A program made the translations under genes and the position numbers. Positions 3,671 through 27,101 of a stretch of 64,000 nucleotides of DNA are shown piece by piece (position 1 is the stretch's first letter; every line of letters begins with the position of its first letter). Origin of the DNA: Escherichia phage phiWec177. The stretch lies in the sequence record LC739532.1; one strand, written 5' to 3'. Below the pieces are notes generated by a model. That model made no database searches and had not been told where the DNA came from. It worked only from the letters and a program-made list of their open reading frames with translations.

Positions 3671-4867
3671 ATGAACAAAGTACAGATTATTAAAAAGAAT
3701 GGCTCACTTGAAGAACCTGATATCAAAAAAGTTTTAGCAGCAGTAACTAAGTCAGCTAACAGGGTTGGATATAAAGAACTCCCACCAGATGTTACCCAAG
3801 CTCTTGAGTCAGCATTTATGAGGATTCTGGTAAAGTCCACTAAGCAGAATAATTTGCTGATTTCTGTAAATGATATTCACAGTATTGTTGAGGGTGCTTT
3901 GGCAGAAGTCAATCACGAGATTTATGAGTCTTACTCAACATATAGAAATTACCGTAAAGAAGTTGCTCAAAATTGGGATGAACTCTACCAGAAGACCAAA
4001 GATACACTCTTCTTAGGCGACAGAGAGAATGCTAACTTTGACAGCAGTTTAATTTCTACAAAAGGTTCAATTATTCGTGGTTATCTGACTAAAGAAATCT
4101 TTAAGCAGTACCACTTAACACCAGAGGAACTTGAAGCCATTGAAAAAGGGTTTATCTACATCCATGACTTAAGAGACCTAATTTTTGGTGGTATCAACTG
4201 TTGTCTGTTTGACATCGGTAAAGTACTGAAAGGTGGCTTTGAAATGTCTGGCATTGAATACTGTGAACCAAAGTCTGTGCTGTCGGCCTTACAGGTTATT
4301 GGTGACATAGTTCTTTCAGCAACTGCACAGCAATTTGGTGGTTTTACTTTAGCAGAGATTGATAAGGTACTTGTACCGTATGCTAAGAAGTCTCTACGCT
4401 ATCATGCTGAGAAAGCAGCATCTTATGGTATTCCTAAAGAGCATTACCACAATTATGTCATGGAGCAGCTACAGATTGAACTGACTCAAGGTTTCCAGTC
4501 ACTTGAAATGAAACTAAACACTGTACCTTGTAGTCGTGGGGATTTTGCATTTACAACTTTGACATTCGGGTTACTTGATTCAGATATGTCCAATGAAGAT
4601 AACCGACTGCAATATATGATTGCAAGTACTCTCCTAGATGTTCGTATGAATGGACAAGGTAAGAGCAAGAAACCTGTTGTATTCCCTAAACTGGTTTATA
4701 TTTATGACCAGAAGAGACATAATGAGAATATCTGTCAATGCCACCTGTACAGTAAAGCTATTGAGTGTTGCTCTAAAGCAATGTATCCAGATTTCTTAAG
4801 TGTGTCTGGTCATGGGGCTGTAGCAGAGGCTTTTGAGCGTTCTGGCAAGGTTATTTCGCCGATGGGT
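3671..4867 (+). CDS. nrdD: Anaerobic ribonucleoside-triphosphate reductase, exon 1 (nominal ORF runs to stop at 4870 inside intron)
   Basis: N-terminal ATP-cone-like segment (VQIIKKNGSLEEPDIKKVL); ORF stops 3 nt into a group I intron; C-terminal half of the protein resumes at 5589. Confidence 0.7.
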
Positions 4868-5588
4868 TAACAGGCTCTATAGCTCATCTAAAACGTGCCT
4901 AAACAGGGAAACTCTACATATGTAGACAATCCTGTGCTAAATGATGTACGATGTAAGAAACTATACAACATAGGAGTCTTACATGCCAAACTATCACGTC
5001 ACTGAAGATGGAAAAGTCTTTAGGGAAAATGGTGTAGAGCTTACGCAGTGGAAATCCAACACTGGGTATATGAAAGTGAGGTTTTACGGTAAGAAGAATC
5101 GTGACATGTATGTCCACAGGTTAGTTGCTGAGAAGTATGTACCTAACCCAAATAATCTTCCAATTGTAAAACATAAGGACGATAACAAACTAAATAACCA
5201 CGCATCTAACTTAGAATGGGGTACTCATTCTGAGAATGCTAAAGAAGGTTATGAGAACGGATGCTACAAGTTCCAAAAGCGTTCATATGCCGTGAAAGCC
5301 ACACACAAAGTGACAAAGGAAGTTATTGTTGCTAAGTCAATACGAGAGTTATCCAATATACTTGGACACAATCGCAAGACCATCTCTTCAATATTGAAGG
5401 GTGTGAAAGAGCATAATAACTTTGAGTATGAGTTTGAATACATCTAAATGCCGAACGACTAACCGTGATGAATGTAGCGGTGTAGGGTCAAGCGACTCGA
5501 AATGGTACGCTACTTAGAAATAAGTAGAAGATATAGTCTGGACTTACTGGCGACAGTAAGCAGCTTGAATAAAGCGGGGTAAGCTTAG
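4868..5588 (+). mobile_element. Group I self-splicing intron (IA-like) interrupting nrdD; boundaries approximate to a few nt
   Basis: 5' region resembles phage group I intron P3-P6 as I recall the T4 td intron (CTAAACAGGGAAACTCTACATATGTAGACAATCCTGTGCTAAAT); R-like element CGAACGACTAA (5451-5465); S element AAGATATAGTCTGGAC (5528-5543); P9 hairpin CTTACTG-GCGA-CAGTAAG; U.G pair possible at 4867/4874; G at 5588 before exon 2. Confidence 0.75.
4983..5447 (+). CDS. Intron-encoded HNH homing endonuclease
   Basis: ATG 4983 after AGGAGTC; HNH-type motif (HRLVAEKY...HKDDNKLNNHASNLEWGTHSEN); lies between intron P6 and P7 regions. Confidence 0.75.
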   Translation: MPNYHVTEDGKVFRENGVELTQWKSNTGYMKVRFYGKKNRDMYVHRLVAEKYVPNPNNLPIVKHKDDNKLNNHASNLEWGTHSENAKEGYENGCYKFQKRSYAVKATHKVTKEVIVAKSIRELSNILGHNRKTISSILKGVKEHNNFEYEFEYI

Positions 5589-6557
5589 CGAACTTACCTG
5601 AACAACAAGTGTAGAGCATTTTTATCACCATACTATAACGAATATGGTGAAGAGTTTTATGTAGGTCGTGCAAACATTGGTGCTGTATCTTTGAACTTAC
5701 CGATGATTTACCAGTATTCTAAAGAGAATGGTTTAGATTTCTGGAAAGAGCTTGATAAGTACCTAGAAATAATTCGCAGCTTCCACAAGAAACGCTACGA
5801 AATGATTGCTAATATGCCAGCAAGTTCTAACCCTCTTGCATTTACACAAGGTGGTCTGTATAAAGGAACTAAGAATCCTACTGACAGGGTTGGTTGGGAT
5901 ATTGTGAAGTCCTTCACAGCTTCTTTTGGGGTTACTGCGCTTGATGAGCTATCTGTTCTTGCTGAAGGTAAACGGCTTCATGAAGTTGGAAGCTGTAGTT
6001 TTACATACGATGTTCTGGCATACATTAACATGAAAACTGAAGAGTTTAAAAATGAAGACGGCTTCTTATATGCCGTCTATGGTACTCCAGCAGAATCACT
6101 TTGCGGAACTCAGCTAAAACAGTTCAGAGATATGTTTGGCGTTATCAAAGGTGTTTCTGATAAGGAATACTTTACAAACAGTTTCCATATGAATGTTGCA
6201 GCAGACATATCACCATTTGAGAAGCAGGACTTAGAAGAGCCATTCTTCCATATCTGTAGAGGTGGGAGAATCCAGTATGTCAGGGTAGCTAACCCAGAAA
6301 ACTTAACAGCACTTAAAAGTTGTATTACCAGAGGGATGTTGAAAGGTTTTTATCAGGGGCTTAACTTTGACTTAGCAATCTGTGAACATTGTGGTAACAG
6401 ACCAAAGGCTGATGTTGAAGAATGTGAGGTTTGCCATTCACATGATATCTCTGTGATTAACAGGGTGTGTGGGTATCTTGGATGGACTAAGATTAAAGGT
6501 GAATCCCGAATGAACGATGCAAAAATCGCTGAGATTCGTGATAGAGTCTCTATGTAA
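5589..6557 (+). CDS. nrdD: Anaerobic ribonucleoside-triphosphate reductase, exon 2
   Basis: Frame open from 5589 (track ORF 5691 uses an internal TTG); zinc-ribbon CxxC...CxxC and glycyl-radical motif RVCGYLG near C-terminus. Confidence 0.75.
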   Translation, partial: RTYLNNKCRAFLSPYYNEYGEEFYVGRANIGAVSLNLPMIYQYSKENGLDFWKELDKYLEIIRSFHKKRYEMIANMPASSNPLAFTQGGLYKGTKNPTDRVGWDIVKSFTASFGVTALDELSVLAEGKRLHEVGSCSFTYDVLAYINMKTEEFKNEDGFLYAVYGTPAESLCGTQLKQFRDMFGVIKGVSDKEYFTNSFHMNVAADISPFEKQDLEEPFFHICRGGRIQYVRVANPENLTALKSCITRGMLKGFYQGLNFDLAICEHCGNRPKADVEECEVCHSHDISVINRVCGYLGWTKIKGESRMNDAKIAEIRDRVSM

Positions 6558-9234: not shown

Positions 9235-9505
9235 AGAAAAGTGGGAGATTTTACCATTAGTCAGTGAAGGAGGTAATGGTTGTGAAATGTACATGATACG
9301 TGGTCATGTTCCAGAGCCAATTGCACTTGAGATGGTAAACAACTTTACAGATGGTTCTTACAAAGACTTAGGAGAGCCAACTATAAAGCAGCAATGGGTA
9401 AAGCCTGTACCAGACAGCACAGGTAACTGTAGTGTACTTTATCACGTTGTAGACCCTGCAAAATGCAAATCTGCAATGGCAGTAACAAACGTAACTTTTG
9501 ATTGA
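9227..9505 (+). CDS. Hypothetical protein
   Basis: 92 aa ORF, overlapping stops/starts with neighbours. Confidence 0.4.
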   Translation: MAKEKWEILPLVSEGGNGCEMYMIRGHVPEPIALEMVNNFTDGSYKDLGEPTIKQQWVKPVPDSTGNCSVLYHVVDPAKCKSAMAVTNVTFD

Positions 9506-9516
9506 GAGAGAAAACT

Positions 9517-10398
9517 ATGAAAACATCTATCCGTGTTACAGTTCATTCACCAACTAAAGGGACTCATGAAGAAGAGTTTAACATCGTCCAATTCCCTTCT
9601 GGTGAGATTGGTGGACACTTTTCACCGGAGTTTGTTGATTTCACTGCTTATGCAGCATCATCTATCAACAATGTGATTATGATTGTAAAAGGTTATGATA
9701 AGGACACATTGTTTGCTGTGGCACTTGCTAAAGAAGCAATTGATGATTTAATTCCTCATGATTATGCTTTAAAGACTGTCATCTTTTACTACTTACCAAA
9801 TGCACGATATGACCGTCACATGTTTAAAGGCGACGCAGCAGCTTTAAAGGTTTTTGCTAAACAGGTAAATGCAATGGGGTTTGGTGCAGTCTGTGCAGTT
9901 GACCCTCACAGTTACGTTCCAGATAACCTGTTTAACTGCTTCCAGAGTATTCCTCAAAAGGAGATTGCAGTCCACTACGCAAATGACCCACTGATTGATT
10001 ACTTAGTAGCCCCAGATGCAGGTGCTGCTAAGAAGATTGCAGAGACTGCTAAAGAGGTGGATAAACCATACATCACAATGTCTAAAGTGCGTAACCTTAA
10101 GACTGGTGAAATTACTGGTATGCGAATCCTTGATGATGTTGATTTGACAGATAAAACCGTCATGATTCTGGATGATATCTGTGATGGTGGTCGAACCTTC
10201 ATAGAAGCAGCGAAACATCTTCGTGAAGCAGGTGCAAAACGTGTGGAACTATATGTAACACATGGTATCTTCTCTAAAGATGTTGAAAACCTTCTTGACA
10301 ATGGTATCGACCATATTTACACTACAAACTCTTTAGGCGAAGCTAAAGACCGTGGCTTAACACATTACAGTCAAGTTACTGTAGCAAACCTTGATTAG
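9517..10398 (+). CDS. Ribose-phosphate pyrophosphokinase homologue (Prs-like; candidate ADP-ribose pyrophosphokinase of an NAD+ reconstitution pathway)
   Basis: ATG 9517 after GAGAGAG; PRTase motif VMILDDICDGGRTF and Prs-like VTHGIFS; adjacent to NAMPT homologue. Confidence 0.65.
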   Translation: MKTSIRVTVHSPTKGTHEEEFNIVQFPSGEIGGHFSPEFVDFTAYAASSINNVIMIVKGYDKDTLFAVALAKEAIDDLIPHDYALKTVIFYYLPNARYDRHMFKGDAAALKVFAKQVNAMGFGAVCAVDPHSYVPDNLFNCFQSIPQKEIAVHYANDPLIDYLVAPDAGAAKKIAETAKEVDKPYITMSKVRNLKTGEITGMRILDDVDLTDKTVMILDDICDGGRTFIEAAKHLREAGAKRVELYVTHGIFSKDVENLLDNGIDHIYTTNSLGEAKDRGLTHYSQVTVANLD

Positions 10399-10406
10399 GT
10401 AACAGT

Positions 10407-10898
10407 ATGAATAAGGGTTATTTTGAAAAATACCTAATATATGAACCAGATACAGGTTTATTAATTTGGAGAGTAACCCTTTGCAGTACCGCTATTGCTG
10501 GTAATGTGGCTGGCACAAGGTCTAAGAAGGGTTATATCCAAGTCCAGATAAATAAGAAGAGGTACTATGCACATAATATTGCATGGATTATGTCTGGAGG
10601 TGAGATACCAAGTGGATATGAGATAGACCACATAGACCTTGATAAAGCTAATAATAAGTTGGAGAATTTAAGACTTAGCACAAAGTCACAAAATCAGAGG
10701 AATAGGGGTATACACAAGAATAATAAAACTGGTGTGAAGGGTGTAAGTTTTTGTAAACAAACAGGTCTTTACAAAGCAAGAGTCATGCTTTACCGTAAAG
10801 AATACTTTTGTGGAAGATTTAAAACGGTAGAAGAAGCAAAAGAAGCTGTAATTAAAAAGCGAATAGAACTTCATGGTGAGTTTGCAAGACATAACTAA
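10407..10898 (+). CDS. Free-standing HNH-AP2 homing endonuclease
   Basis: HNH-type motif EIDHIDLDKANNKLENLRLSTKSQN plus AP2-like DNA-binding segment GVKGVSF...YKARV...GRFKTVEEAKEA; sits between the two NAD-pathway genes. Confidence 0.65.
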   Translation: MNKGYFEKYLIYEPDTGLLIWRVTLCSTAIAGNVAGTRSKKGYIQVQINKKRYYAHNIAWIMSGGEIPSGYEIDHIDLDKANNKLENLRLSTKSQNQRNRGIHKNNKTGVKGVSFCKQTGLYKARVMLYRKEYFCGRFKTVEEAKEAVIKKRIELHGEFARHN

Positions 10899-10913
10899 GA
10901 GAGAGATTAAAAG

Positions 10914-12695
10914 ATGACTAAATCACTTTATGCAGTACCAGCAGGTCTTAATGCAGATGCTTACAAGGCATCACATATATATCAGTATCCAGATGCTACG
11001 CAATATCTTATGTTGAACCTGACACCACGTAGTGACAAATGGTTTAACAGCCCTTTAGCAATTGACGGTGTAGTGGCTTTTGGTATTCAACGTTTTGTTA
11101 AAGATTACTTGATAGACCACTGGAACGCCACTTTCTTTGAACGTGACAAAAAAGAAGCAATTGACGAAATCTTAGAAGTCATGAACGGTGTTCTAGGTAA
11201 AGATGCTATCGGTCGAGAGCATTGGGAAGCACTTCACGACTTAGGTTATCTACCAGTTGAAGTATACGCTGTAGAAGAAGGCACAGTTGTCCCTATGCGT
11301 GCCCCAATGATTGTCTTCCAGAACACTATTTCAGGTTTCCATTGGGTAGCTGGGTATCTGGAAGATGCTTTCTCTGCTGAGATTTGGAAGGCTTGTACCA
11401 TTGCAACTATTGCATTGCACTACAAACGTATCTGTAAGAAGTGGGCTGACCTTACTTGTGACAACGACTTGCATCTACCCTATCAGTGCCATGACTTTGC
11501 TATGCGTGGTATGTCCGGCTTTACTGATGACGCATTTAACGCTGTAGGTCACTTAACCAGCTTTAAAGGAACTGATAGTTTCCCTGCTGTTTATACAGCT
11601 AAACGCATCTACGGTCAGTCCTACCCAATCTCTGATATTGGTAACTCTGTACCAGCCACTGAACACTCTGTAATGTGTGCAAACATTGCTTGGGAAGGTG
11701 GTAATGAGTTGATTGAAGAAGAAAGACGCTTTAAAGGTGAGTTACAAACCTTCCGTCGTTTCTTAACAGAAACTTACCCAACTGGTATTGCAAGTATTGT
11801 TTCAGATACTTACAACTTCTGGAGAACTGTGTCAGAAATCTTACCAGCACTCCGTAAAGAAATTATGGAACGTGATGGCAAACTGGTAATTCGCCCTGAC
11901 TCTGGAGACCCTGTACATATTGTCACAGGTTATAAAGCAATTCACTTAGAGTGTGCTAAGAAGGCTTATTACGAGCACCTAAGCAAGCTAGAGGCAAGTG
12001 ACACAATGCTGAACTCTGTCCTGAACATGAAGCTTGAAAACATCAATTATGGTATTGCTGGATGGCTACTGTCAGAAGGCTACGAAATGGTTGTTGACAG
12101 AGAAGACTTTGAAGTTGCTGATACAGTGCTGTTGAAAAATGCTTATATGGTTGGTTCTGCAAACGTTGTAACACGTCCTGTAGCGGAGATTGATGGAGCT
12201 ATCAAGACACTGTATAACATCTTTGGGGGAACTATTAACTCTAAAGGGTTTAAGGTACTGGATGAGCATATCGGCCTTATCTATGGTGACTCTATCACGC
12301 TGGAACGTGCAAACGAAATCCTGAAGCGTCTGTATGAAATGGGTTTTGCAAGCTCTAACGTAGTGTTTGGCGTAGGCTCTTACACTTACCAGTACATGAC
12401 TCGTGACACCTTTGCATTTGCTGTTAAAGCAACTCTTGCAAGCATTGGTGGTAAAGAGATTATGCTTGCAAAAGACCCTAAAACAGATAGTGGTGTTAAG
12501 AAGTCTGCTTTTGGTGGTGTAGCACCTATGTGGGATGGTGATAAGTTGAAAGCTGTAGATGGCTATGGATTCCAGAGCTTTGCAGATGCACTTGACCACC
12601 CAGCTTGTGCTTTACGTTTAGTCTTTAGTGACTCTGAGCAGTACGGTTACACATCTCTTGGTGATATTCGAAATAATATTGACAAGCAGCTTTAA
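10914..12695 (+). CDS. Nicotinamide phosphoribosyltransferase family protein (NAMPT/NadV-like; candidate Namat)
   Basis: 593 aa with overall NAMPT-family pattern by recollection; adjacent Prs-like gene. Confidence 0.65.
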   Translation: MTKSLYAVPAGLNADAYKASHIYQYPDATQYLMLNLTPRSDKWFNSPLAIDGVVAFGIQRFVKDYLIDHWNATFFERDKKEAIDEILEVMNGVLGKDAIGREHWEALHDLGYLPVEVYAVEEGTVVPMRAPMIVFQNTISGFHWVAGYLEDAFSAEIWKACTIATIALHYKRICKKWADLTCDNDLHLPYQCHDFAMRGMSGFTDDAFNAVGHLTSFKGTDSFPAVYTAKRIYGQSYPISDIGNSVPATEHSVMCANIAWEGGNELIEEERRFKGELQTFRRFLTETYPTGIASIVSDTYNFWRTVSEILPALRKEIMERDGKLVIRPDSGDPVHIVTGYKAIHLECAKKAYYEHLSKLEASDTMLNSVLNMKLENINYGIAGWLLSEGYEMVVDREDFEVADTVLLKNAYMVGSANVVTRPVAEIDGAIKTLYNIFGGTINSKGFKVLDEHIGLIYGDSITLERANEILKRLYEMGFASSNVVFGVGSYTYQYMTRDTFAFAVKATLASIGGKEIMLAKDPKTDSGVKKSAFGGVAPMWDGDKLKAVDGYGFQSFADALDHPACALRLVFSDSEQYGYTSLGDIRNNIDKQL

Positions 12696-16925: not shown

Positions 16926-17474
16926 ATGAAGAAATTGATTCTAGGTTTGTGCTTAATGTTTACAGCACACTTATCTTATGCAGTTGACTGCCCAGAGCTA
17001 TCAATTAGCCAAAAAGTAAACATGTTAAAAGCTTACCAGTATGGTGAGAATAACATGGGTAAAGGTTGGGGTATCACTCTAGCTGCTATAGCCTTACAAG
17101 AGTCAGAGTTAGGTCTGAAGGTAGAGAATAAAAAGACACATGATTATGGTATTTTCCAGAATCACTTGAAGACTGTTGTAAAGCGTAACAAAATTAGTCC
17201 TAATGTGGCTAAAAAGAAACTCTTAAAAGACTTTGACTATGCTGCGAAGGAAACGCACAAAGAACTTGAGTTTTGGACAAAGGTGCATGGTCAGCCAAAG
17301 TCAAAGAAGATTTTACAAAAAGTTTTAGCATCATATAATGCTGGGTATTCGTACAGAATCCCTAAAGCTAAGAAATATTCTCAAGATGTCTATAACAACA
17401 TGAAAGTTATCGCTCAATGTGAATTTGCAACAAACATTTCTAAGGTAAATCATGAAAAAATTAAGAAAGTCTGA
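16926..17474 (+). CDS. Secreted lytic transglycosylase-like protein (SLT domain) with signal peptide
   Basis: N-terminal signal peptide MKKLILGLCLMFTAHLSYA; SLT-like motifs AIALQESELG and DYGIFQ. Confidence 0.55.
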   Translation: MKKLILGLCLMFTAHLSYAVDCPELSISQKVNMLKAYQYGENNMGKGWGITLAAIALQESELGLKVENKKTHDYGIFQNHLKTVVKRNKISPNVAKKKLLKDFDYAAKETHKELEFWTKVHGQPKSKKILQKVLASYNAGYSYRIPKAKKYSQDVYNNMKVIAQCEFATNISKVNHEKIKKV

Positions 17475-18147
17475 TGAAGTACTGTGCCATGCTTATGACT
17501 TGCATCCTCATGAGTTAGGTCTTGATTCTGACATATGGACTCCAGAACAGTGTAGGGATTTTGAAGACACCGCAAGAGAAGTTGTATGTTCACTCGAAGA
17601 GTTCCACACATCAGAGCCAATTGTGAATGTTGTAGATAAAGAGACTGGACAAACTATAGGTGTGAGTCGTGATAGCTTAGTCATAGTCAATAAAGACCTT
17701 GTAGAAAAAGGGAATCTCATCTTAGCAGATATTGATGGTGTTCTTACAAATTTTAATCACGAAGATTGCTCAACGGAATTGACCGACGGTTCATTCTCGC
17801 AGTATACCAATCTTCTTGATTCTGTAAGAGCAAAGCCGACGTATGTTTTCAATATCATTGATGCAATTGCTAATCATGCTGCTGTTGGACTCTTGACAGC
17901 GAGAGGTGAATCTCAGAGAATACCTACTGAGATGTTTTTAAGGCATAACACAGAGCATGACTACATGCTTTTTATGCGTGGTTTTGGGACTAACTCTATA
18001 AGTGCAGAAAGTTTGAAAGTGAGGATAATTCAGTCTTGCATTCTGCCTTACTTTAATATAGTATGTTTTATAGAAGACACAGAGAAGAATGTGCAGAAGG
18101 TGAACAGAATCCTTCCACACATTAAAACCATGTTAGTTAAACATTGA
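17452..18147 (+). CDS. HAD-superfamily hydrolase-like protein (putative nucleotidase/phosphatase); start uncertain
   Basis: DxDGVL-type motif (ILADIDGVL) followed by LLTARG and IEDTEKN segments. Confidence 0.35.
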   Translation: MKKLRKSDEVLCHAYDLHPHELGLDSDIWTPEQCRDFEDTAREVVCSLEEFHTSEPIVNVVDKETGQTIGVSRDSLVIVNKDLVEKGNLILADIDGVLTNFNHEDCSTELTDGSFSQYTNLLDSVRAKPTYVFNIIDAIANHAAVGLLTARGESQRIPTEMFLRHNTEHDYMLFMRGFGTNSISAESLKVRIIQSCILPYFNIVCFIEDTEKNVQKVNRILPHIKTMLVKH

Positions 18148-18622: not shown

Positions 18623-18634
18623 GGTTAAGATACA

Positions 18635-18656
18635 GGCTCCTTCGGGAGCCTTTTTC
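18635..18656 (+). terminator. Rho-independent terminator
   Basis: GGCTCC-ttcg-GGAGCC hairpin followed by TTTTT. Confidence 0.65.
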
Positions 18657-18674
18657 ATTTTAGGAGATTGTTAA

Positions 18675-19022
18675 ATGACATTTAAAGAGTTCTGTCAAGC
18701 TACTTTCATAATTGTTTTCTTAGTTGGTGCAGGTGTCTGGGGAGGATACTCTTACAGAGACTATCAAGTTGCTGAAACTGAGCTAAACAATCAAAAGCTC
18801 ATAAGTGTTGCTAAAGATGCTTATCAGGAAGGATTAGTCACACTGAGCACCAATTACAAAAATGATTTGAAAGATGTGCTTGCTAAGAATAAGCATACAA
18901 AAGAGGTACTAACATATGAAAAAACTAAGCCAGAGTTTTATAATGTTTGTGTTACTGATAACTATGTCAGGGTGTTCAACGAACAAAGTGAGCAGTACAT
19001 TCAAAAACTCCCAAGTAAGTGA
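18675..19022 (+). CDS. Inner-membrane spanin component (Rz-like)
   Basis: N-terminal TM helix then charged coiled-coil-like periplasmic region; contains the embedded lipoprotein ORF in +1 frame. Confidence 0.55.
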   Translation: MTFKEFCQATFIIVFLVGAGVWGGYSYRDYQVAETELNNQKLISVAKDAYQEGLVTLSTNYKNDLKDVLAKNKHTKEVLTYEKTKPEFYNVCVTDNYVRVFNEQSEQYIQKLPSK

Positions 19023-19185
19023 GAGTGATAAGTACACTCAAGAAGAATCACGGTATATCATCAAAGGTAACACAGGCAGTGATGTAGCAGCAGCCCTTGA
19101 GTCCTATCGTGACGGCTTTTACCAGTGCACAATCAAAGCTAACAACCTTATTGACATGATTTTATTAGGAAATAAACAGCAATGA
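18916..19185 (+). CDS. Outer-membrane lipoprotein spanin component (Rz1-like), overlapping Rz-like gene
   Basis: Signal peptide with lipobox-like LITMSGC; starts inside previous gene in another frame. Confidence 0.55.
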   Translation: MKKLSQSFIMFVLLITMSGCSTNKVSSTFKNSQVSESDKYTQEESRYIIKGNTGSDVAAALESYRDGFYQCTIKANNLIDMILLGNKQQ

Positions 19186-19451
19186 CAGAGAATGAAGATA
19201 CTTTTTACGTAGAAGGGTACTTACTGTTACCACGCCCAAAAGAAACTTATATGCGAATTGACTTCATACCAACCATTATGGATAATGTGATGTGTCATAT
19301 CTTTATGCAGGGTGTCACAGCACAGCTTAAGCATGTTGGTAAAGACTGCAAAATAAAGGTTGACACTCATCCAGAAATCAAAGAGAATCACTACACATGG
19401 TTCTTACCAGATTCTAAAGAAATCTTAGCAGTTCTTAAAACGAGGAAGTAA
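19182..19451 (+). CDS. Hypothetical protein
   Basis: 89 aa ORF, ATGA overlap with upstream gene. Confidence 0.4.
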   Translation: MTENEDTFYVEGYLLLPRPKETYMRIDFIPTIMDNVMCHIFMQGVTAQLKHVGKDCKIKVDTHPEIKENHYTWFLPDSKEILAVLKTRK

Positions 19452-19453
19452 AT

Positions 19454-19783
19454 ATGCAGATTAATGGAAGAGACTTTGTAGCCGTTTACTACGACGAGAA
19501 AGATAAAGAAGTTGGCGTAGCACAAGTATCTTATGGCAATGGTAAGTGGTTGTATGGGACAATCGCAGTAGTCGGAACAAGAAGTGATACAAAAACTTTT
19601 AAAGACTGTGTTGACCTTCTTGAAGAATCCATCCATAATCATTGGTGTCTGATATGGATGACTGACAACGAAGTGATAGAACGCTTCAAAAAGATTGGTA
19701 TCAACATTGATAGCATTGAGCATGTTGACTTGTATGAGCTAACTGAGAAGGTAAACTATGAAAGTAATACTAGCCAGAGATAA
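19454..19783 (+). CDS. Hypothetical protein
   Basis: 109 aa ORF. Confidence 0.4.
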   Translation: MQINGRDFVAVYYDEKDKEVGVAQVSYGNGKWLYGTIAVVGTRSDTKTFKDCVDLLEESIHNHWCLIWMTDNEVIERFKKIGINIDSIEHVDLYELTEKVNYESNTSQR

Positions 19784-19991
19784 AAAGACCCGCAAGATTG
19801 TACGTTCAGCAGTATTCATAGGGAGAGATGAAGTCGTCCCGTTTGCAGGGGAAGATGTGCTAACTTATAAGAAGGGTTTAAAACGTAAATTCAGTGACCG
19901 TTTACGCGGCTTCATCTCTGAACCATTAGAAGATTTCAAAAGTCGCTGTGGCGAAGGCATCATCATCCAAGAGGCAATTATTCATGGCTGA
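19758..19991 (+). CDS. Hypothetical protein
   Basis: 77 aa ORF. Confidence 0.35.
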   Translation: MKVILARDKKTRKIVRSAVFIGRDEVVPFAGEDVLTYKKGLKRKFSDRLRGFISEPLEDFKSRCGEGIIIQEAIIHG

Positions 19992-20184
19992 CTTCTGCAA
20001 AGATTGTGCTATCGAAATGTTCGGACGTGATACAGGTGACTTAAAAGGTCTTATCACTGAAGATGACTTTAAAGCTGGCTATGCAATGCCAGTAATCTGT
20101 GAAGGTTGTGGATGTATCTGGGTAGACCACGAAGGGCAACGTGTAAAGCCTTCAGAAGATAAAGAATCTTGGGAGAGATGTTAA
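19984..20184 (+). CDS. Small Cys-rich (zinc-ribbon-like) protein
   Basis: ATG 19984; CKDC...CEGCGC cysteine pairs. Confidence 0.4.
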   Translation: MADFCKDCAIEMFGRDTGDLKGLITEDDFKAGYAMPVICEGCGCIWVDHEGQRVKPSEDKESWERC

Positions 20185-20964
20185 ATGGGTATTGTAAAAG
20201 TTGTAAAAGGTAACTTACTAGCTGCCTTCAAAAACACAGACATTGAGTTAATTGCTCATGGTTGCAACTGTCGTAACCTCATGGGTGCTGGAATCGCTCA
20301 AAAAATTGCTAAGATTTTCCCAAAAGCTGAAGAAGCTGACCGGAAGTTCCATAAAAAGTTTGGCTACAGTGCCCATGATATCGGATACCAGATGGCTGGT
20401 GAGGTGTCACATGCTCGAACGGAGTATGGTTACATTTTTAACCTATATACACAGTTGGATGTTGGGAAGTGTGCATCATACCGATACTTAGTGGAGTCAC
20501 TAGAAAAACTCCGTAAATTTTGCTGGCTGCACAACATTCGTAAGATTGGTTTACCCATGATTGGGGCAGGTATAGGCGGTTTAGATGCACAAGCTGTGAA
20601 AAGCCTCATTAATAGTGTTATGTATAACGTTGATGTGTACCTATACGTCTATGATGAAGCAATGGCAAGTGTAGTTACCACTAAGTATGCTACCTCAGCA
20701 CCACAATTCTATGATGGTGTCGTGCTAAGTGACGGGAAGACTAATCAAGTTACCCTCTATCAGCTTGTTGATGGCAAGGTTGAGGTTAGTTACCCTCTGG
20801 TTAGTGAGATGGGTATGTGTAACAGTGAAATGTTCCCAGTTGACCCGTTTGGAAGATATGAAGGTGTATTCTTTGATAACTACCCAGCAGCGTACATCTA
20901 CACAACAAATCAGGATGAAGTTCACTACTTGCTGTATTCTAAAAAGTTCAAATTCATAAGCTGA
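20185..20964 (+). CDS. Macro-domain protein (ADP-ribose binding/hydrolase fold) with C-terminal extension
   Basis: Macro-domain signature IAHGCNCRNLMGAGIA ... LPMIGAGIGGL in the first ~150 aa. Confidence 0.65.
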   Translation: MGIVKVVKGNLLAAFKNTDIELIAHGCNCRNLMGAGIAQKIAKIFPKAEEADRKFHKKFGYSAHDIGYQMAGEVSHARTEYGYIFNLYTQLDVGKCASYRYLVESLEKLRKFCWLHNIRKIGLPMIGAGIGGLDAQAVKSLINSVMYNVDVYLYVYDEAMASVVTTKYATSAPQFYDGVVLSDGKTNQVTLYQLVDGKVEVSYPLVSEMGMCNSEMFPVDPFGRYEGVFFDNYPAAYIYTTNQDEVHYLLYSKKFKFIS

Positions 20965-21039
20965 TTAGTACTTCACAGTATCTACAAATCATCTAAGAAG
21001 GCTGCCTAACCCATTGAAAAATTTAAGGTAAGGCGGCCT

Positions 21040-21210
21040 TTTTCATTTTCAATTTGTGCAGGTATCTGGAGGGGTCTGTACAGATATCCCAAAAAATCTC
21101 ATCGCCGGATAGAAAAATCATTTTCAAAACGTGCAGAGAAAAATCAGGTCGGGCAAGAAAAATCATTTTAGAATTGTGCAGGTAGGTGGGTGTAGGTGGG
21201 GATGTCGCCA
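21040..21210 (+). repeat. Three spaced copies of a TCATTTT-N-TGTGCAG(G) motif
   Basis: ttttcattttcaatttgtgcagg / aaatcattttcaaaacgtgcagag / aaatcattttagaattgtgcagg seen directly. Confidence 0.45.
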
Positions 21211-21359
21211 TTTCTCACAAGGCTACCACATCTAAAAAGAAAAGTCAACAGAAAAATTTGTAGCGGATTGAAAAATAATTCTTGATTGTAGTTCTGTTTT
21301 GTGGTAGTCGTGCGCGCCCGTTCCTCTCCCAAACTTACAAAAATATTTAATAAAAACTA

Positions 21360-21388
21360 TTGACACACAAAACAGGTTTACGTAATAT
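21360..21388 (+). promoter_or_regulatory. Sigma70-type promoter (TTGACA -N17- TAATAT)
   Basis: Consensus -35 and near-consensus -10 with 17 bp spacer upstream of the small-gene array. Confidence 0.55.
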
Positions 21389-21437
21389 TTGCATCAGACG
21401 GGCAAGCAAGCCCACTCCCTAAACTGGAGATTCTAAA

Positions 21438-21644
21438 ATGTTATATCAACGCCAATTGATGATTGTAGACAATAACAAGACTAAAAAGCGCCGTTTCTTT
21501 ATGCTTATTTGTGATGTATGGCAACGTATCTCAGAAAAGGATTTTGATAAATATGTTGATACATCAATCAGGTCAGATTGTTATTTGACAAATCACACAA
21601 GACAGTTTACAAGACATACAGCAGTTTACTACTATGACGTTTAA
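21438..21644 (+). CDS. Hypothetical small protein (first gene of small-gene array)
   Basis: Preceded by CCTAAACTGGAGATTCTAAAATG initiation cassette. Confidence 0.45.
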   Translation: MLYQRQLMIVDNNKTKKRRFFMLICDVWQRISEKDFDKYVDTSIRSDCYLTNHTRQFTRHTAVYYYDV

Positions 21645-21818
21645 AAGGGCTTGACAATGATTAAAGAAGGCAATGTAATAAGCTACAAAGATTTAGACGG
21701 ATACCCAAAAATTGGGAAAGTTTTCTACCTTTACAAGTCAGTGATGGATAATGACTGCATAGCCCTAACAAATGGCGACAAGATAACCATGAAAGATTTT
21801 ATAAAAATTATTTCATAA

Positions 21819-21905
21819 AGTGCTTTACATGGGGTTTAAAAAGGTAGTATCTTAAGCCCCAGATAAAGAGCTTTACCACTCAATCCTAAATTGGAGAACT
21901 TAAAA
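21819..21905 (+). repeat. Intergenic cassette type A copy 1 (hairpin + RBS)
   Basis: AAGTGCTTTACA..GGGG..-loop-..AAGCCCC..AGATAAAGAGCTTTACCACTCAATCCTAAA(T/C)TGGAG; shared with 22287, 23361, 24156, 25423. Confidence 0.6.
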
Positions 21906-22286
21906 ATGGCATACCGCGCACCGAAATTCATCAATAAAGAAAATTTTCGTAATGTATTAGAGAAGGCGCTTGATGAAAAATTTAACGGCAAAATAATTGT
22001 TGTTCACTCGTTCAATTTTAAGTATGATATCAACGGGAATAAAATCAACCATTACACGGCAACCATGTTAGATGGTACTCTTTCAAGTGAAAAAACAATT
22101 CTCCATGCACTTGCAGGACGTGGTAAAAACCTGATAAGATGCGATAAGAGACGTTATCAGGGTGGCGCATATGGTTATGATGATGCTGTTTATCATCTTG
22201 AAAATATGGGCTATTCAGTGGAAAAAGCTGGAGTGTCTCAAATAATCGGCAGTGACGGCTATGTGACAATTTTCAAAATTAACTAA
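21906..22286 (+). CDS. Hypothetical protein
   Basis: ATG 21906 downstream of type A cassette. Confidence 0.45.
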   Translation: MAYRAPKFINKENFRNVLEKALDEKFNGKIIVVHSFNFKYDINGNKINHYTATMLDGTLSSEKTILHALAGRGKNLIRCDKRRYQGGAYGYDDAVYHLENMGYSVEKAGVSQIIGSDGYVTIFKIN

Positions 22287-22374
22287 TAAAGTACTTTACA
22301 GGGGGCTTACAGTTCGATAAAGTAAGCCCCAGATAAAGAGCTTTACCACTCAATCCTAAACTGGAGTTTCAAAA
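22287..22374 (+). repeat. Intergenic cassette type A copy 2
   Basis: Near-identical to 21819-21905. Confidence 0.6.
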
Positions 22375-22671
22375 ATGAAACTATCAAATAAAGCCCGTGA
22401 AAATCTAAGCAAGTTACTTAACAAAATTGATTTTATTGAAACATCAAGGAATAGTCATGATGTTATGGAATGGTTACACGGCAAAATAAAAGGCCGTCGT
22501 GTAGTAATTTGCTTATGGAATAGTTGCAGGGAATATAAAAAACCTGTATTACAAGTCAATATCTACGATGATACTTTTAAAAGCCCTGTAAAGTCTAAAA
22601 GCGATTTATTAGAATCTTATGAGATAACTGTAAGTGGCAAAGTATCACGTAAAGAGGAAACACCGTGTTAA
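22375..22671 (+). CDS. Hypothetical protein
   Basis: 98 aa ORF after cassette. Confidence 0.45.
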   Translation: MKLSNKARENLSKLLNKIDFIETSRNSHDVMEWLHGKIKGRRVVICLWNSCREYKKPVLQVNIYDDTFKSPVKSKSDLLESYEITVSGKVSRKEETPC

Positions 22672-22997: not shown

Positions 22998-23009
22998 TTT
23001 TGGTTTTTA

Positions 23010-23087
23010 AAACAAGTAAATTACTAATCAACGGTGAGGGAATGAACTTCCCCACTAAGTAAAGTCCTTAAACTAGGAGATTCAAAA
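23010..23087 (+). repeat. Intergenic cassette type B copy 1 (hairpin + RBS)
   Basis: TCAACGG(G)GAGG..-loop-..CCCC ACTAA(A/G)TAAAGTCCT(T)AAACT(A/G)GGAGATTC; shared with 23884, 25100, 26180, 26780. Confidence 0.55.
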
Positions 23088-23360
23088 ATGTATACTACTA
23101 ACAACGGTCGCACTTTAAACGTAACCCTACGCCACTATGTGAACGGTGTAATGCACTTCGAGGATTTACAAGCCGAACAACACATTTTAGATTGGCAACT
23201 TGCAGGACTCCAAAAAACTGTTACAGGATACGGGAAAAAGATTCCAACTAGCTGGAAAGTATACTACGAAGGCCGTTTGCGCAGAATTTATCAAGATGTA
23301 TACAGCAATAGCGCAACAAGTTACATCATGGTAAAAGGTAAAAAGCTGCATTTAGCATAA
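23088..23360 (+). CDS. Hypothetical protein
   Basis: 90 aa ORF after type B cassette. Confidence 0.45.
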   Translation: MYTTNNGRTLNVTLRHYVNGVMHFEDLQAEQHILDWQLAGLQKTVTGYGKKIPTSWKVYYEGRLRRIYQDVYSNSATSYIMVKGKKLHLA

Positions 23361-23446
23361 AGTACTTTACAAGGGGCTTATAGTTCGATAAAGTAAGCCC
23401 CAGATAAAGAGCTTTACCACTCAATCCTAAACTGGAGAACTTAAAA
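23361..23446 (+). repeat. Intergenic cassette type A copy 3
   Basis: Near-identical to other type A copies. Confidence 0.6.
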
Positions 23447-23851
23447 ATGGCTATTAATAACCGTGAATTATCAATTTTAAAAGCACGTTTGACCGTTAAC
23501 CGGATTAATGTTATTACGTCATCAGCACCAGATGAAACATTGCACAGCATTATTGGGAAGATTCAAAGTATTATTTTAGACGTTGAAAACGTAAAAAGTT
23601 CATTGGCTGACGTTGCAGCAGGTATCACGCTAGACGGTGCGCAATATGAAATGATTGATATGCTAGGCAAATCTAAGGTAATGAATAGGGAGTTAGATTT
23701 GAAAATGTTTAGATTTGCTGTTAAAGTATGGCTATCCGTCGAGTATGACGCTAATTTTGCAATCGCTGATTTCTTTGCCACTTGGTTACAACGTAATTTG
23801 ACAAATCACGATTTTCGTGATGTCTGTGATGCAATTTATGCAGAACTCTAA
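23447..23851 (+). CDS. Hypothetical protein
   Basis: 134 aa ORF. Confidence 0.45.
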   Translation: MAINNRELSILKARLTVNRINVITSSAPDETLHSIIGKIQSIILDVENVKSSLADVAAGITLDGAQYEMIDMLGKSKVMNRELDLKMFRFAVKVWLSVEYDANFAIADFFATWLQRNLTNHDFRDVCDAIYAEL

Positions 23852-23860
23852 AAAATTTTG

Positions 23861-23889
23861 TTGACACTGATTTTTAGATAGGTTAAATT
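23861..23889 (+). promoter_or_regulatory. Candidate promoter (TTGACA -N17- TAAATT) inside type B cassette
   Basis: Consensus -35, weak -10. Confidence 0.35.
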
Positions 23890-23951
23890 ACACATCAACG
23901 GGGAGGCGATAACCTCCCCACTAAATAAAGTCCTAAACTGGAGATTCTAAA
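23884..23951 (+). repeat. Intergenic cassette type B copy 2
   Basis: CAACGGGGAGGCGATAACCTCCCCACTAAATAAAGTCCTAAACTGGAGATTCTAAA. Confidence 0.55.
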
Positions 23952-24155
23952 ATGGCTATTATCAACGGCTTACACATTGAAACAACTCACATCAAAGATA
24001 TTAAAGTTGGTGATATAGTTCTCTTTCACGGCGTAGAAAAAACTGTCACGGCGAAAGATATTACAGAAGAATCTTTCATGGGCCGGTCACTCTTCGGTGA
24101 TTCTTATTGCTTAGGTTACCGTGCAGTTTTAAAAGTTGTCAAAAATAACAAATAA
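23952..24155 (+). CDS. Hypothetical small protein
   Basis: 67 aa ORF. Confidence 0.4.
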   Translation: MAIINGLHIETTHIKDIKVGDIVLFHGVEKTVTAKDITEESFMGRSLFGDSYCLGYRAVLKVVKNNK

Positions 24156-24240
24156 AGTACTTTACAAGGGGCTTAAAAGTTGGTATCTTAAGCCCCAGAT
24201 AAAGAGCTTTACCACTAAATCCTAAACTGGAGATTCAAAA
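24156..24240 (+). repeat. Intergenic cassette type A copy 4
   Basis: Near-identical to other type A copies. Confidence 0.6.
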
Positions 24241-24783
24241 ATGAAATGCTTTCATGGTACTACTCAAGAAAACTTTATCAACCTGATTAATAACGGTGAT
24301 AAACCATCGGGCGCATGGAATTGTTCGGATATGGACGGCAATTTTTACGTTTATCCAGAAAATAAAATCTATGGCGACGATGAGGAAGAGATAACAGCCG
24401 AAGGTATCCAACAAGCTCTAGGCAATGCCACTATCACCGCAGCTTTTCAGATGAAGACTCAAAATATTGTTATCTTAGAACTCGATATTCCAGAGGATGA
24501 GCTAAACGATGATTATTCTTGTGATAATATGTCGAGTGTAGCAAGTTTTACAGAGTACTTTGATGTAAGTTGGATTAAAAAGGTTTACGTAACAGAATTT
24601 AATGCGATGTATTCGCCTTTTTGTCTTCCTTCACTGGATAACCCAAATATGAACTATCTTGATGAGTCTCTGGAGCTTCTCGCTAAAAGTGTTCAACAGT
24701 CGGACAGTATTCAGGTTTTTTGTGACATCATGGATACACTAACGGGAAACATCACAGAGAGAGACTTAAAGAGCTTTTTTTAA
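24241..24783 (+). CDS. Hypothetical acidic protein (N-terminal FHGT motif; speculative ADP-ribosyltransferase-like fold)
   Basis: 180 aa; FHGTT at residues 4-8, FYVY about 30 aa later, acidic LELDIPEDELNDD segment. Confidence 0.4.
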   Translation: MKCFHGTTQENFINLINNGDKPSGAWNCSDMDGNFYVYPENKIYGDDEEEITAEGIQQALGNATITAAFQMKTQNIVILELDIPEDELNDDYSCDNMSSVASFTEYFDVSWIKKVYVTEFNAMYSPFCLPSLDNPNMNYLDESLELLAKSVQQSDSIQVFCDIMDTLTGNITERDLKSFF

Positions 24784-25082: not shown

Positions 25083-25099
25083 ACAAGCCTGATAAAAAT

Positions 25100-25173
25100 C
25101 TGTAAATTGTCAATCAACGGGGGGGGGGAATGACCTTCCCCACTAAATAAAGTCCTAAACTGGAGATTCTAAA
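25100..25173 (+). repeat. Intergenic cassette type B copy 3, containing a homopolymeric G tract (about 10 G)
   Basis: CAACGGGGGGGGGGAATGACCTTCCCC...; the G run replaces GGGGAGGG of sibling copies. Confidence 0.55.
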
Positions 25174-25422
25174 ATGTATACTAAAACGCAACTTAAAAGC
25201 ATGGTTAACAATGGTTTAATGGATGAAGTCTACAAAGAATGTAGACGCTATGGAAAAATCATGGATAAGTCTAGTTATGAGTATACTCACACAATAGATT
25301 TCAAAACTAATGAAAAACAAACTGACTTTATCACTGTAATAGTTATTGAATATAAACACTTGCTGTGGACTTTTGAGCTAGTAAAAGGTGAGTGTATAGA
25401 AATCGAATACAAAGACGCTTAA
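25174..25422 (+). CDS. Hypothetical small protein
   Basis: 82 aa ORF. Confidence 0.4.
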   Translation: MYTKTQLKSMVNNGLMDEVYKECRRYGKIMDKSSYEYTHTIDFKTNEKQTDFITVIVIEYKHLLWTFELVKGECIEIEYKDA

Positions 25423-25501
25423 AAGTACTTTACAGGGGGCTTAAAAGTTGATATCTTAAGCCCCCAGATAAAGAGCTTTCCTAAACTGGAGATTCAAAAA
25501 G
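25423..25501 (+). repeat. Intergenic cassette type A copy 5 (internally deleted)
   Basis: Same 5' half as type A, shortened 3' part ending ...CTAAACTGGAGATTCAAAAAG. Confidence 0.5.
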
Positions 25502-26179: not shown

Positions 26180-26255
26180 AAAACAAGTAAATTACTAATC
26201 AACGGGGAGGCAATAACATCCCCACTAAATAAAGTCCTAAACTGGAGATTCTAAA
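26180..26255 (+). repeat. Intergenic cassette type B copy 4
   Basis: AACAAGTAAATTACTAATCAACGGGGAGGCAATAACATCCCCACTAAATAAAGTCCTAAACTGGAG. Confidence 0.55.
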
Positions 26256-26786
26256 ATGAACAAATTTCAAGCTATCAACCACATTCGTTCAAATAGTGTC
26301 ATGTCTAAGCCTGTTAAAGACACATATGAGTTCCGTTGTAATGGGGTACACTTTGCAACCATCACTAAATCAGAAAACGGGGCTTATTACGTTCATCGTC
26401 GTAATGTTTATACCGTTGTAGTCTCTCACTTTATGCAAGCTGTAGCAGAGTTATTACCGTTATTCTTAGAGATTTACTTAGATGAGTGTAAAAACGTTCA
26501 CAACCACGTTAAAAACCTTTTAAACGGTTATAAAATGGCTTATGAGCGTTCTATCAAGTCCTTAAACAAGTTCTATAAAGCCCCTGCAAATACTGTTTCA
26601 ATGGCTTACAGTGTAAGCGGTGAGTTGGTTAGTCTCTTCGAAGTGGAAGAAATCGAACTATATAACTCACGCCCTAGCGGTTACTCTAAGACACTGGGAG
26701 AGGGCTTATCTTTCAATATCAAGAACTTAGAGAAAACTTTAAAAGATATTGAAAAAGATATTGACGAGACAATCAAAAATCTGTAA
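26256..26786 (+). CDS. Hypothetical protein
   Basis: 176 aa ORF. Confidence 0.45.
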   Translation: MNKFQAINHIRSNSVMSKPVKDTYEFRCNGVHFATITKSENGAYYVHRRNVYTVVVSHFMQAVAELLPLFLEIYLDECKNVHNHVKNLLNGYKMAYERSIKSLNKFYKAPANTVSMAYSVSGELVSLFEVEEIELYNSRPSGYSKTLGEGLSFNIKNLEKTLKDIEKDIDETIKNL

Positions 26787-26852
26787 ATTGTCAATCAACG
26801 GGGAGGGAATGACCTTCCCCACTAAATAAAGTCCTAAACTGGAGATTCTAAA
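26780..26852 (+). repeat. Intergenic cassette type B copy 5
   Basis: Near-identical to 25100-25173 but with GGGGAGGG instead of the G run. Confidence 0.55.
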
Positions 26853-27101
26853 ATGGCAACTATCCGCGCCACTGTTAACGAATTTGGTTTTTACTCTCTG
26901 GATGTTAAATTTGACCTTGTAGGCACTGACAACGCCTTTGAAATGGTGAAAGGTCTTATCAGTCAGACCATCAAGGACTATAACCCCTCTAATGAGTTCT
27001 GGAAAGAAACAAAACAGGAAGTTCTTAAAGATGGTTACACTTTTCACTATTGGGGTGAAAAAATCGTCTCCCTGTACTACGACAAAGAAGGCACTAACTA
27101 A
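26853..27101 (+). CDS. Hypothetical small protein (last plus-strand gene before non-coding region)
   Basis: 82 aa ORF. Confidence 0.45.
   Translation: MATIRATVNEFGFYSLDVKFDLVGTDNAFEMVKGLISQTIKDYNPSNEFWKETKQEVLKDGYTFHYWGEKIVSLYYDKEGTN

Follow-up and report, generated by a model that had tools for sequence, protein, structure and literature searches.

What does phage phiWec177 gain from the gene at positions 20185 to 20964 of its genome? We have analyzed a stretch of 64,000 nucleotides of Escherichia phage phiWec177 (LC739532.1; this whole stretch is the window from here on), a FelixO1-like myovirus genome of the genus Felixounavirus. For the gene in question, located on the + strand, a first-pass annotation made from the letters alone had proposed a macro domain and a role against ADP-ribosylation or NAD-based defense. 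Over the 3.5 kb around the macro gene, Escherichia phages phiWec172 and phiWec174 have 99.6% identity to phiWec177, and for many Salmonella and Escherichia Felixounaviruses the identity is 88-94%. We have confirmed the macro domain and, as far as sequence and model comparisons reach, the protein is a credible but unproven member of the known phage counter-defense enzymes. Tentatively, we read it as a hydrolase like AdfM (anti-DarT factor, macrodomain; 10.1101/2025.11.20.689424) that would act at the C1'' position of ADP-ribose conjugates, with a phosphatase like Adpp as a strong rival. The parts of the gene on which this reading is built are the following (ORF, open reading frame; AF2, AlphaFold2; pI, isoelectric point; dN/dS, ratio of nonsynonymous to synonymous changes).

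20185..20964, + strand: macro gene, complete coding sequence with ATG start, 259 aa and TGA stop, coding for a two-domain protein (ORF list; PHROG 335; dN/dS)
20185..20655, + strand: macro domain, residues 1-157, basic, pI 9.1 (Pfam PF01661, AF2, Foldseek, DarG profiles)
20257..20271, + strand: HGCNC, residues 25-29, with His25 and Asn28 (H25, G26 and N28 invariant)
20281..20298, + strand: first glycine-rich loop MGAGIA, residues 33-38 (M33, A35, G36 and I37 near-invariant, A38 invariant)
20440..20454, + strand: NLYTQ, residues 86-90 (N86 to Q90 invariant in 29 homologs)
20563..20583, + strand: second glycine-rich loop GAGIGGL, residues 127-133 (G127, G129, I130 and G132 invariant)

The macro domain and its predicted active site

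The ORF is exactly as first annotated (+ strand, 259 aa), and the macro domain that it codes for is genuine, well beyond chance. Pfam PF01661 matched residues 25-140 with 29 bits, over a gathering score of 22 (E 1.1e-6), and PHROG 335 ('phosphatase') matched residues 1-258 (E 6.5e-85). With a profile of 29 homologs, the top sequence match in the PDB was TARG1 (E 2e-16), and further matches were DarG (5e-12), BT1257 and SCO6735 (~4e-11) and Poa1p (3.5e-10). The AF2 model built on the homolog alignment (predicted local distance difference test, pLDDT, 93.1; predicted TM-score, pTM, 0.89) has the three-layer alpha/beta macro fold, with a Foldseek probability of 1.00 to DarG, TARG1 and Poa1p. The top Foldseek ranks were taken by the DarG macrodomains of T. 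aquaticus and M. tuberculosis, TARG1 and Poa1p (E ~1e-10 to 1e-9, target TM-score, TMt, 0.78-0.86). Thus Pfam, the PDB profile search, the model and Foldseek all recover the domain that the first-pass annotation had named, and both glycine loops are intact. In public records the gene carries the labels 'phosphatase', 'macro domain-containing protein' and 'Poa1p-like'.

The three motifs quoted in the first pass (HGCNC, MGAGIA and GAGIGGL) are present at invariant or near-invariant columns, and NLYTQ, which it did not mention, completes the motif set of a phage clade (HxCNC, MGxG, NxYxQ and IGxGxGG). His25, Asn28 and Gln90 are invariant across the 29 homologs. In curated alignments Asn28 falls in the column of DarG Asn22, named an active-site residue (PMC13309987). 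His25 aligns with the His of 'AHVCN' in SCO6735 and, by manual count, corresponds to Poa1p His23, and the counterparts of the MGAGIA loop are MGKG in DarG and MGAG in TARG1. Column for column, Gln90 is Lys80 in DarG, Lys84 in TARG1 and Gln85 in SCO6735 (NLYTQ against NFPTK, LITK and NMIGQ, respectively), and BT1257 also has a Gln in this column, within N-x-x-x-Q. Gly131 occupies the position of TARG1 Asp125, and the second loop is like GxGNGGL of DarG and unlike GCGLDRL of TARG1. Because Gln90 and Gly131 replace Lys80 or Lys84 and Asp125, the protein is predicted to be neither a DarG-type nor a TARG1-type catalyst. SCO6735 cleaves thymidine-linked ADP-ribose off DNA and gives protection from DarT, and it loses its activity with the Q85A mutation (PMC9411070). 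Since SCO6735 is active with Gln85 and dead without it, a Gln at this position is compatible with catalysis, for which it is needed in SCO6735. The macro domain is of the ALC1-like type (DarG/TARG1/SCO6735/Poa1p), with Gln replacing the catalytic Lys, and not of the MacroD type.

SCO6735 and BT1257 (PDB 5e3b and 2fg1) resemble the phage domain in the Gln of N-x-x-x-Q, the His of A-H-x-C-N and the G-x-G-x-x-G-G loop, NLYTQ and AHGCN of phiWec177 standing for NMIGQ and AHVCN of SCO6735. However, SCO6735 is only ~25% identical to the phiWec177 macro domain and is a bacterial, single-domain protein. Its mobile loop is five or six residues longer and has DNA-binding lysines, while the phiWec177 loop past Gln90 is shorter, and Lys34 of its first loop is Ala35 in phiWec177. 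SCO6735 acts on proteins besides DNA (PMC9411070). DarG (PDB 5m31 and 5m3i) comes closest in structure (Foldseek E 1.4e-10, TMt 0.83-0.84), and the equivalent of its Asn22 and the GxGxGGL second loop are kept, but Lys80 of DarG and Lys78 of PhiKZ AdfM are Gln in the phiWec177 protein. DarG profiles match the macro half only (PADLOC E 8e-16, positions 2-151 of 329; NCBIfam E 9e-15, positions 2-165 of 338). With 54.8 bits the protein stays far below the 250 bits required by the NCBIfam DarG equivalog NF048014, the C-terminal DarT-binding half of DarG is unmatched, and no darT neighbor was found, the flanking ORFs having no Pfam match and only PHROGs of unknown function. PhiKZ gp104, an AdfM with biochemically proven DNA de-ADP-ribosylation, keeps the DarG-like Asn and Lys. 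TARG1/OARD1, the best sequence match, has a Lys84/Asp125 dyad that is absent here (Gln90 and Gly131 instead). Poa1p presumably lacks the Gln. It shares the H-x-C-N-C motif, including the His that is mutated (H23A) in PDB 6lfs.

The C-terminal domain and the alleles

Beyond the macro domain the first-pass annotation had described an extension of about 110 aa of unknown function. The extension turns out to have 102 residues (158-259), forming a short helix and a beta-rich domain. Its parts, and the segment of the genome in which most of the gene is found, are as follows.

20656..20706, + strand: linker with short helix, residues 158-174 (DSSP of the AF2 model: helix 158-164, then coil)
20701..20718, + strand: junction motif P-x-x-[FY]-D-G, Pro173 to Gly178 (its Pro and Gly are the sole invariant alignment columns)
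20707..20961, + strand: orphan beta-rich C-terminal domain, residues 175-259, six strands and one helix, ~85 aa (AF2 model)
20328..21884, no strand: segment with no or patchy DNA homology to phage UAB_Phi87 (blastn: none at 20328-21021, patches to ~21884)

The region 158-259 is acidic (pI 4.6). Modelled alone, the C-terminal domain reached a pLDDT of 83.8, and the linker had a low pLDDT if modelled without the macro domain. The junction motif is the only part of the C-terminal region that is conserved across lineages. A BFVD search with the domain gave its own family and no other relative, and a profile of it run against 1.84 billion representative proteins gave only about six true members, of which all full-length ones are fused to the same macro domain, the other two being fragments. 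Weak profile matches to long proteins were rejected as PQQ/BamB beta-propeller blades, a likeness of a single hairpin and not homology. Homology to the DarT-binding half of DarG went undetected by both full-length DarG profiles. Neither a generic DNA-binder nor a DNA mimic is supported, because the net charge of the domain is not conserved and ranges from -5 to +3.8 among lineages. All the lineages with the C-terminal domain have it in the same syntenic slot, 3' of rIIB and a polynucleotide-kinase (PNKP)-like gene, and for this reason we consider the two-domain macro gene ancestral in FelixO1-like phages. We regard the C-terminal domain as an accessory module that diverges fast and is confined to this phage lineage.

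The phiWec177-type allele was found in 12 of the 256 phage records with a full-length match (10 phages, with Escherichia or Salmonella as hosts), and these 12 carriers are 93-100% identical at the nucleotide level. The remaining records have less than 60% protein identity, and the full-length ones that were sampled have 39-43%. Compared with the common Felixounavirus allele, the whole protein is ~41% identical, although the flanks share ~86-95%; the macro domain is ~50% identical and the C-terminal domain ~20%. The allele is cassette-like. In the blastn comparison with UAB_Phi87, a typical Felixounavirus, identity was 95% up to 19458 and 86% for 19442-20327, and since homology stops at 20328, a cassette beginning near the 5' end of the macro gene has been exchanged, carrying most of the allele together with the gap 3' of the gene. 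In our view such allele turnover is typical of counter-defense genes and would be expected of one. Within the five phages compared that carry the allele, the dN/dS of the macro frame was 0.03-0.19, with 0.03-0.09 and 0.07-0.19 for the two domains, indicating purifying selection on both. Minus-strand ORFs inside the macro gene (up to 66 aa) were dismissed because the plus frame is under such strong purifying selection. Given the 20% identity of the C-terminal domain against 50% for the macro domain, both under purifying selection, the faster divergence of a nevertheless constrained extra domain is easier to reconcile with a macromolecular partner than with a small-molecule phosphatase, and we infer that this domain contacts a macromolecule.

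Candidate substrates and biological target

Tk.4 of phage T4 is needed for resistance to DarTG2, as found by a transposon screen and a clean knockout, and was there named AdfM (HIDEN-SEQ preprint, 10.1101/2025.11.20.689424). It is 33% identical to the phiWec177 macro protein (E 3e-22) and has the same motif set (HGCNC, MGSGVA, NLYTQ and IGAGIG), including the Gln at the DarG Lys80 position. Tk.4 differs in being stand-alone, 155 aa long and acidic (pI 5.9), whereas the phiWec177 macro domain is basic and is followed by the 102-residue region. Besides, its gene is located between vs and tk, a setting different from that in phiWec177, and the DarTG2 phenotype is known for Tk.4 only. In a neighbor-joining (NJ) tree one clade with 100% bootstrap unites the phiWec177 protein with Tk.4, with all the two-domain homologs and with the stand-alone homologs of phages, and the Adpp-type protein of phage Pontus, which is linked to the NAD+ reconstitution genes NARP1 and was the single Adpp representative, falls outside. 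None of the four close stand-alone homologs adjoins NARP1 genes, and two of them are located between the DNA-polymerase region and a DnaB-like helicase, by a Tad2-like gene. In the metagenomic phage contigs L013 (6606-7073) and L015 (6621-7028) the closest stand-alone macro homologs are two genes away from this Tad2-like (anti-Thoeris sponge) gene, with the DnaB-like helicase between, which hints at a small anti-defense cluster within the replication module of these contigs.

The second characterized relative is Adpp of Vibrio phage Gary, a Poa1p-like macro protein whose gene lies, in some NARP1 operons, between those for Adps and Namat. Adpp turns ADP-ribose (ADPR)-1''-phosphate, the product of aRES defense, into ADPR, from which NARP1 rebuilds NAD+, as shown in vitro and in vivo. 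The syntenic Adpp protein of Pontus has motifs of the same family (AHQCNC, MGRGIA, NVYGQ and IGCGLAGG) and is 28% identical to the phiWec177 protein (E 2e-14) and 36% to Tk.4; it has a longer basic loop past the Gln and lacks the C-terminal domain. The reactions of Tk.4 and Adpp would both swap the C1'' leaving group of the distal ribose for water, and one type of active site could plausibly serve both. In phiWec177 the NARP1 genes are these (PRPP, phosphoribosyl pyrophosphate).

9502..10398, + strand: Adps/PRPP-synthetase-like gene (Pfam)
10407..10898, + strand: HNH/AP2 endonuclease ORF (Pfam)
10914..12695, + strand: Namat/NAMPT-like gene (Pfam)

These are the NAD+ reconstitution genes that the first-pass annotation had invoked along with the macro gene. 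They are indeed in the window, but NARP1 (9502..12695) is ~7.5-8 kb 5' of the macro gene, with rIIA, rIIB and other genes between, and is not part of the same operon. As a counter to either kind of defense the protein finds parallels in its own Gln-type clade, Tk.4/AdfM acting against DarT2 and Adpp acting with NARP1 against aRES, so that both halves of the role proposed at first hold up; a connection with Thoeris, also raised there, found no support in our analysis.

We favor an AdfM-like function because of the membership in the Tk.4 clade and because no NARP1 is found beside the four close stand-alone homologs. The two glycine loops would bind the ADP-ribose moiety, and the His25/Asn28/Gln90 site, of the Gln type and without the catalytic Lys as in SCO6735, would hydrolyze the C1'' bond of the distal ribose. 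The likeliest substrate would be ADP-ribose on thymidine of single-stranded phage DNA, put there by host DarT2. Its removal would allow phage replication to resume, the protein being in this case an orphan antitoxin of the AdfM type like T4 Tk.4. Several points weigh against this. There is no mention of the Felixounavirus macro gene in HIDEN-SEQ, in PhageMaP (Bas63) or in the aRES paper and supplements. For Tk.4 there is only genetic evidence, published as a preprint (10.1101/2025.11.20.689424), and the proven AdfM, PhiKZ gp104, keeps the Lys and is thus of a different subtype. The Adpp-type protein has the same motif set and, at 36% identity, is as close to Tk.4 as the phiWec177 protein, so that function may depart from the tree, which contains one Adpp. 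The phiWec177 genome encodes NARP1, which co-occurs with the two-domain gene even in LPML1. Neither DarG-profile scores nor net charge, nor the pI of the macro domain, nor NARP1 co-occurrence separates AdfM from Adpp. Finally, the short loop past Gln90 lacks the extra DNA-binding lysines of SCO6735.

Part of these points suit a function like that of Adpp, which we regard as possible: a host aRES (RES-domain) protein would split NAD+ into nicotinamide and ADPR-1''-phosphate, the macro enzyme would remove the phosphate, and the phage Adps and Namat would rebuild NAD+, that is, a NARP1-AP with an unlinked phosphatase gene. Gary Adpp, Poa1p-like in its macro domain, is a proven phosphatase, the Pontus protein shares its motifs with that of phiWec177, and Poa1p is both a profile match and a fold match (TMt 0.78) in which His25 corresponds to His23 by manual alignment. 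NARP1 and the two-domain gene are found together across the subfamily, including BPS17L1 and LPML1, of which the latter is the most divergent lineage, and many further phage groups with the macro family also carry Namat. The published screen took only macro genes at most two genes from NARP1, by which unlinked copies would have been missed, and aRES is known in E. coli, Klebsiella and Enterobacter. Only under this alternative would NARP1 be a possible functional partner of the macro gene. On the other hand, the Adpp gene lies between Adps and Namat, whereas the macro gene is ~8 kb from them beyond rIIA/rIIB, and the terminator-like site at 18634-18661, 5' of its run of ORFs, suggests that it is transcribed separately. 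The tree groups the phiWec177 protein with Tk.4 and away from the Adpp type with 100% bootstrap. T4 has the same macro type, and no NARP1 reported for T4 came to our notice, although no direct check was made. Nor is it obvious why a small-molecule phosphatase would have an extra domain that diverges so rapidly.

It is unlikely that the protein works on another ADP-ribose conjugate, be it from host or phage proteins or RNA, or ADP-ribose-1''(2'')-phosphate of RNA repair (the role of Poa1p, in tRNA splicing). TARG1, the best sequence match, is a protein and DNA de-ADP-ribosylase, and SCO6735 acts on proteins too, but the TARG1 dyad for protein substrates (Lys84/Asp125) is absent. A polynucleotide-kinase-like gene is located at 17452..18147, 2 kb 5' of the macro gene (PHROG 3970; HAD_PNKP in syntenic loci), PhageMaP noted a Tpt1/KptA-like fold in Bas63 gp107, and a viral NAD-ADPr survey argues for soluble ADPr derivatives as the main substrates of phage macro domains. 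Against this, the annotation of 45 kb of a RefSeq phage with the allele lists no ADP-ribosyltransferase, NADAR or RNA 2'-phosphotransferase, and the nearest characterized phage relatives act as AdfM or Adpp. Very improbable, in our judgment, is a non-catalytic reader or sponge that only binds molecules containing ADP-ribose so as to sequester or mark them, the C-terminal domain being the effector. The protein lacks the Lys that is canonical in DarG and TARG1, some macro domains are binders only, and one GenBank record labels the protein 'high-affinity ADP-ribose binding module'; however, the invariance of His25, Asn28 and Gln90 in the 29 homologs, the essential role of the same Gln in SCO6735 and the proven activity of the clade member Adpp argue for an enzyme.

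As for the C-terminal domain, one could speculate that it is a target-binding module analogous, not homologous, to the DarT-binding domain of DarG. It would grip the host toxin (DarT2 or another ADP-ribosyl or NAD-cleaving effector) while the macro domain erases the product of the toxin, making a two-pronged phage orphan antitoxin whose deep allelic split would match different host toxin variants. This we hold to be rather doubtful.

FelixO1-like phages find wide use against Salmonella and E. coli, and the defenses that they disarm bear on host range. As an AdfM, the protein would give Felixounaviruses a counter to DarTG2 of their own; as an unlinked Adpp, it would extend NARP1 to aRES, and the published share of NARP1-AP (15% of NARP1 phages) would be an underestimate. 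One Gln-type macro clade recruited to two counter-defense jobs would be a natural system for the study of substrate choice at C1'', and the fold-orphan, fast-evolving C-terminal domain with two diverged alleles in one genus provides material for allele swaps.

Gene setting and other features of the window

The macro gene is the last of a tight run of ORFs (18675-20964) made of the spanins, four small ORFs and the macro gene, the spanin labels being those annotated in relatives. The signals and the neighbor that surround it are these.

18634..18661, + strand: terminator-like site bounding the ORF run on its 5' side (terminator scan)
19984..20184, + strand: 66-aa CxxC...CxxC ORF 5' of the macro gene, PHROG 2210, function unknown (ORF list, PHROG)
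20171..20184, + strand: Shine-Dalgarno GGGAGA (20171-20176) and TAA of the upstream ORF (20182-20184) (direct sequence reading)
20995..21053, + strand: intrinsic-terminator-like hairpin and U-run, ~30 nt past the macro stop codon (RNA fold)

The Shine-Dalgarno sequence is 8 nt 5' of the macro ATG and the TAA of the 66-aa ORF abuts this ATG, the two genes being apparently translationally coupled. The arrangement is kept with either macro allele (UAB_Phi87, VpaE1, EcoM2, Si3 and pSJ21), and because of this the 66-aa and macro proteins may work together. With its two CxxC pairs the 66-aa protein is zinc-ribbon-like. The hairpin at 20995-21053 has -23.3 kcal/mol (z = -5.1), with none of 200 shuffles equally stable, and the transcription unit probably ends there. 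A structured RNA in the gap 3' of the macro gene was considered and rejected, the sole Rfam match being sub-threshold (E 0.13) and overlapping the terminator hairpin. This non-coding gap of ~470 nt contains two adjacent 43-nt repeats (21094-21181) that are 72% identical, and lies inside the segment without consistent homology to UAB_Phi87.

With regard to NARP1, the Bas63 genes g79/g80 counter Sir2-HerA (PhageMaP). In BPS17L1 Adps and Namat are directly adjacent, unlike in phiWec177 where the endonuclease ORF is found between them, and from this the ORF 10407..10898 seems to be a homing-endonuclease gene that entered the anti-defense operon recently. The anaerobic ribonucleotide reductase gene nrdD (span 3671-6557) is split into 3671..4870 (ATP-cone, N-terminal half) and 5691..6557 (C-terminal half, with the glycyl-radical domain), and an HNH homing-endonuclease ORF at 4983..5447 separates the two; BPS17L1 is annotated with the same arrangement.

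Past the macro gene there are five intergenic copies of a module, each before a small ORF (21818-21860, 22288-22330, 23359-23401, 24154-24196 and 25422-25464), with extended copies at 21800-21910, 22270-22380, 23341-23451 and 24136-24246. The module contains TTTACA, a GGGGCTTA...TAAGCCCC hairpin and a -10-like box, and looks like a repeated promoter with an embedded stem-loop. A leader of ~70 nt is also present in five copies (23009-23071, 23875-23954, 25097-25176, 26180-26258 and 26776-26855), with a GGGGAGG...CCTCCCC hairpin and then TAAATAAAGTCCTAAACTGGAGATTCTAAAATG, after which the ATG comes without a gap in four of the five. This leader is a conserved 5' untranslated region and ribosome-binding module common to several small genes. 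In the region 37630-43229, on the + strand, 24 tRNA genes with 19 amino-acid specificities are clustered.

Some records of related phages deserve a comment. 'Listeria phage LPML1' (OK283618.1; loci L009 and L017) is classified in Ounavirinae and has the rIIA-rIIB-PNKP-macro synteny, NARP1 and nrd order of enterobacterial FelixO1-like phages, which makes its stated host doubtful. Among the records labelled Staphylococcus phage SA1 and Campylobacter phage C15 (phage hits H101, GU169904.1, and H44 and H48), SA1 contains a Felixounavirus-type Namat (96.8% identity), and C15 a macro gene like those of enterobacterial myoviruses. Since both carry genes typical of enterobacterial phages, this suggests that the SA1 and C15 records are mislabelled or mixed.

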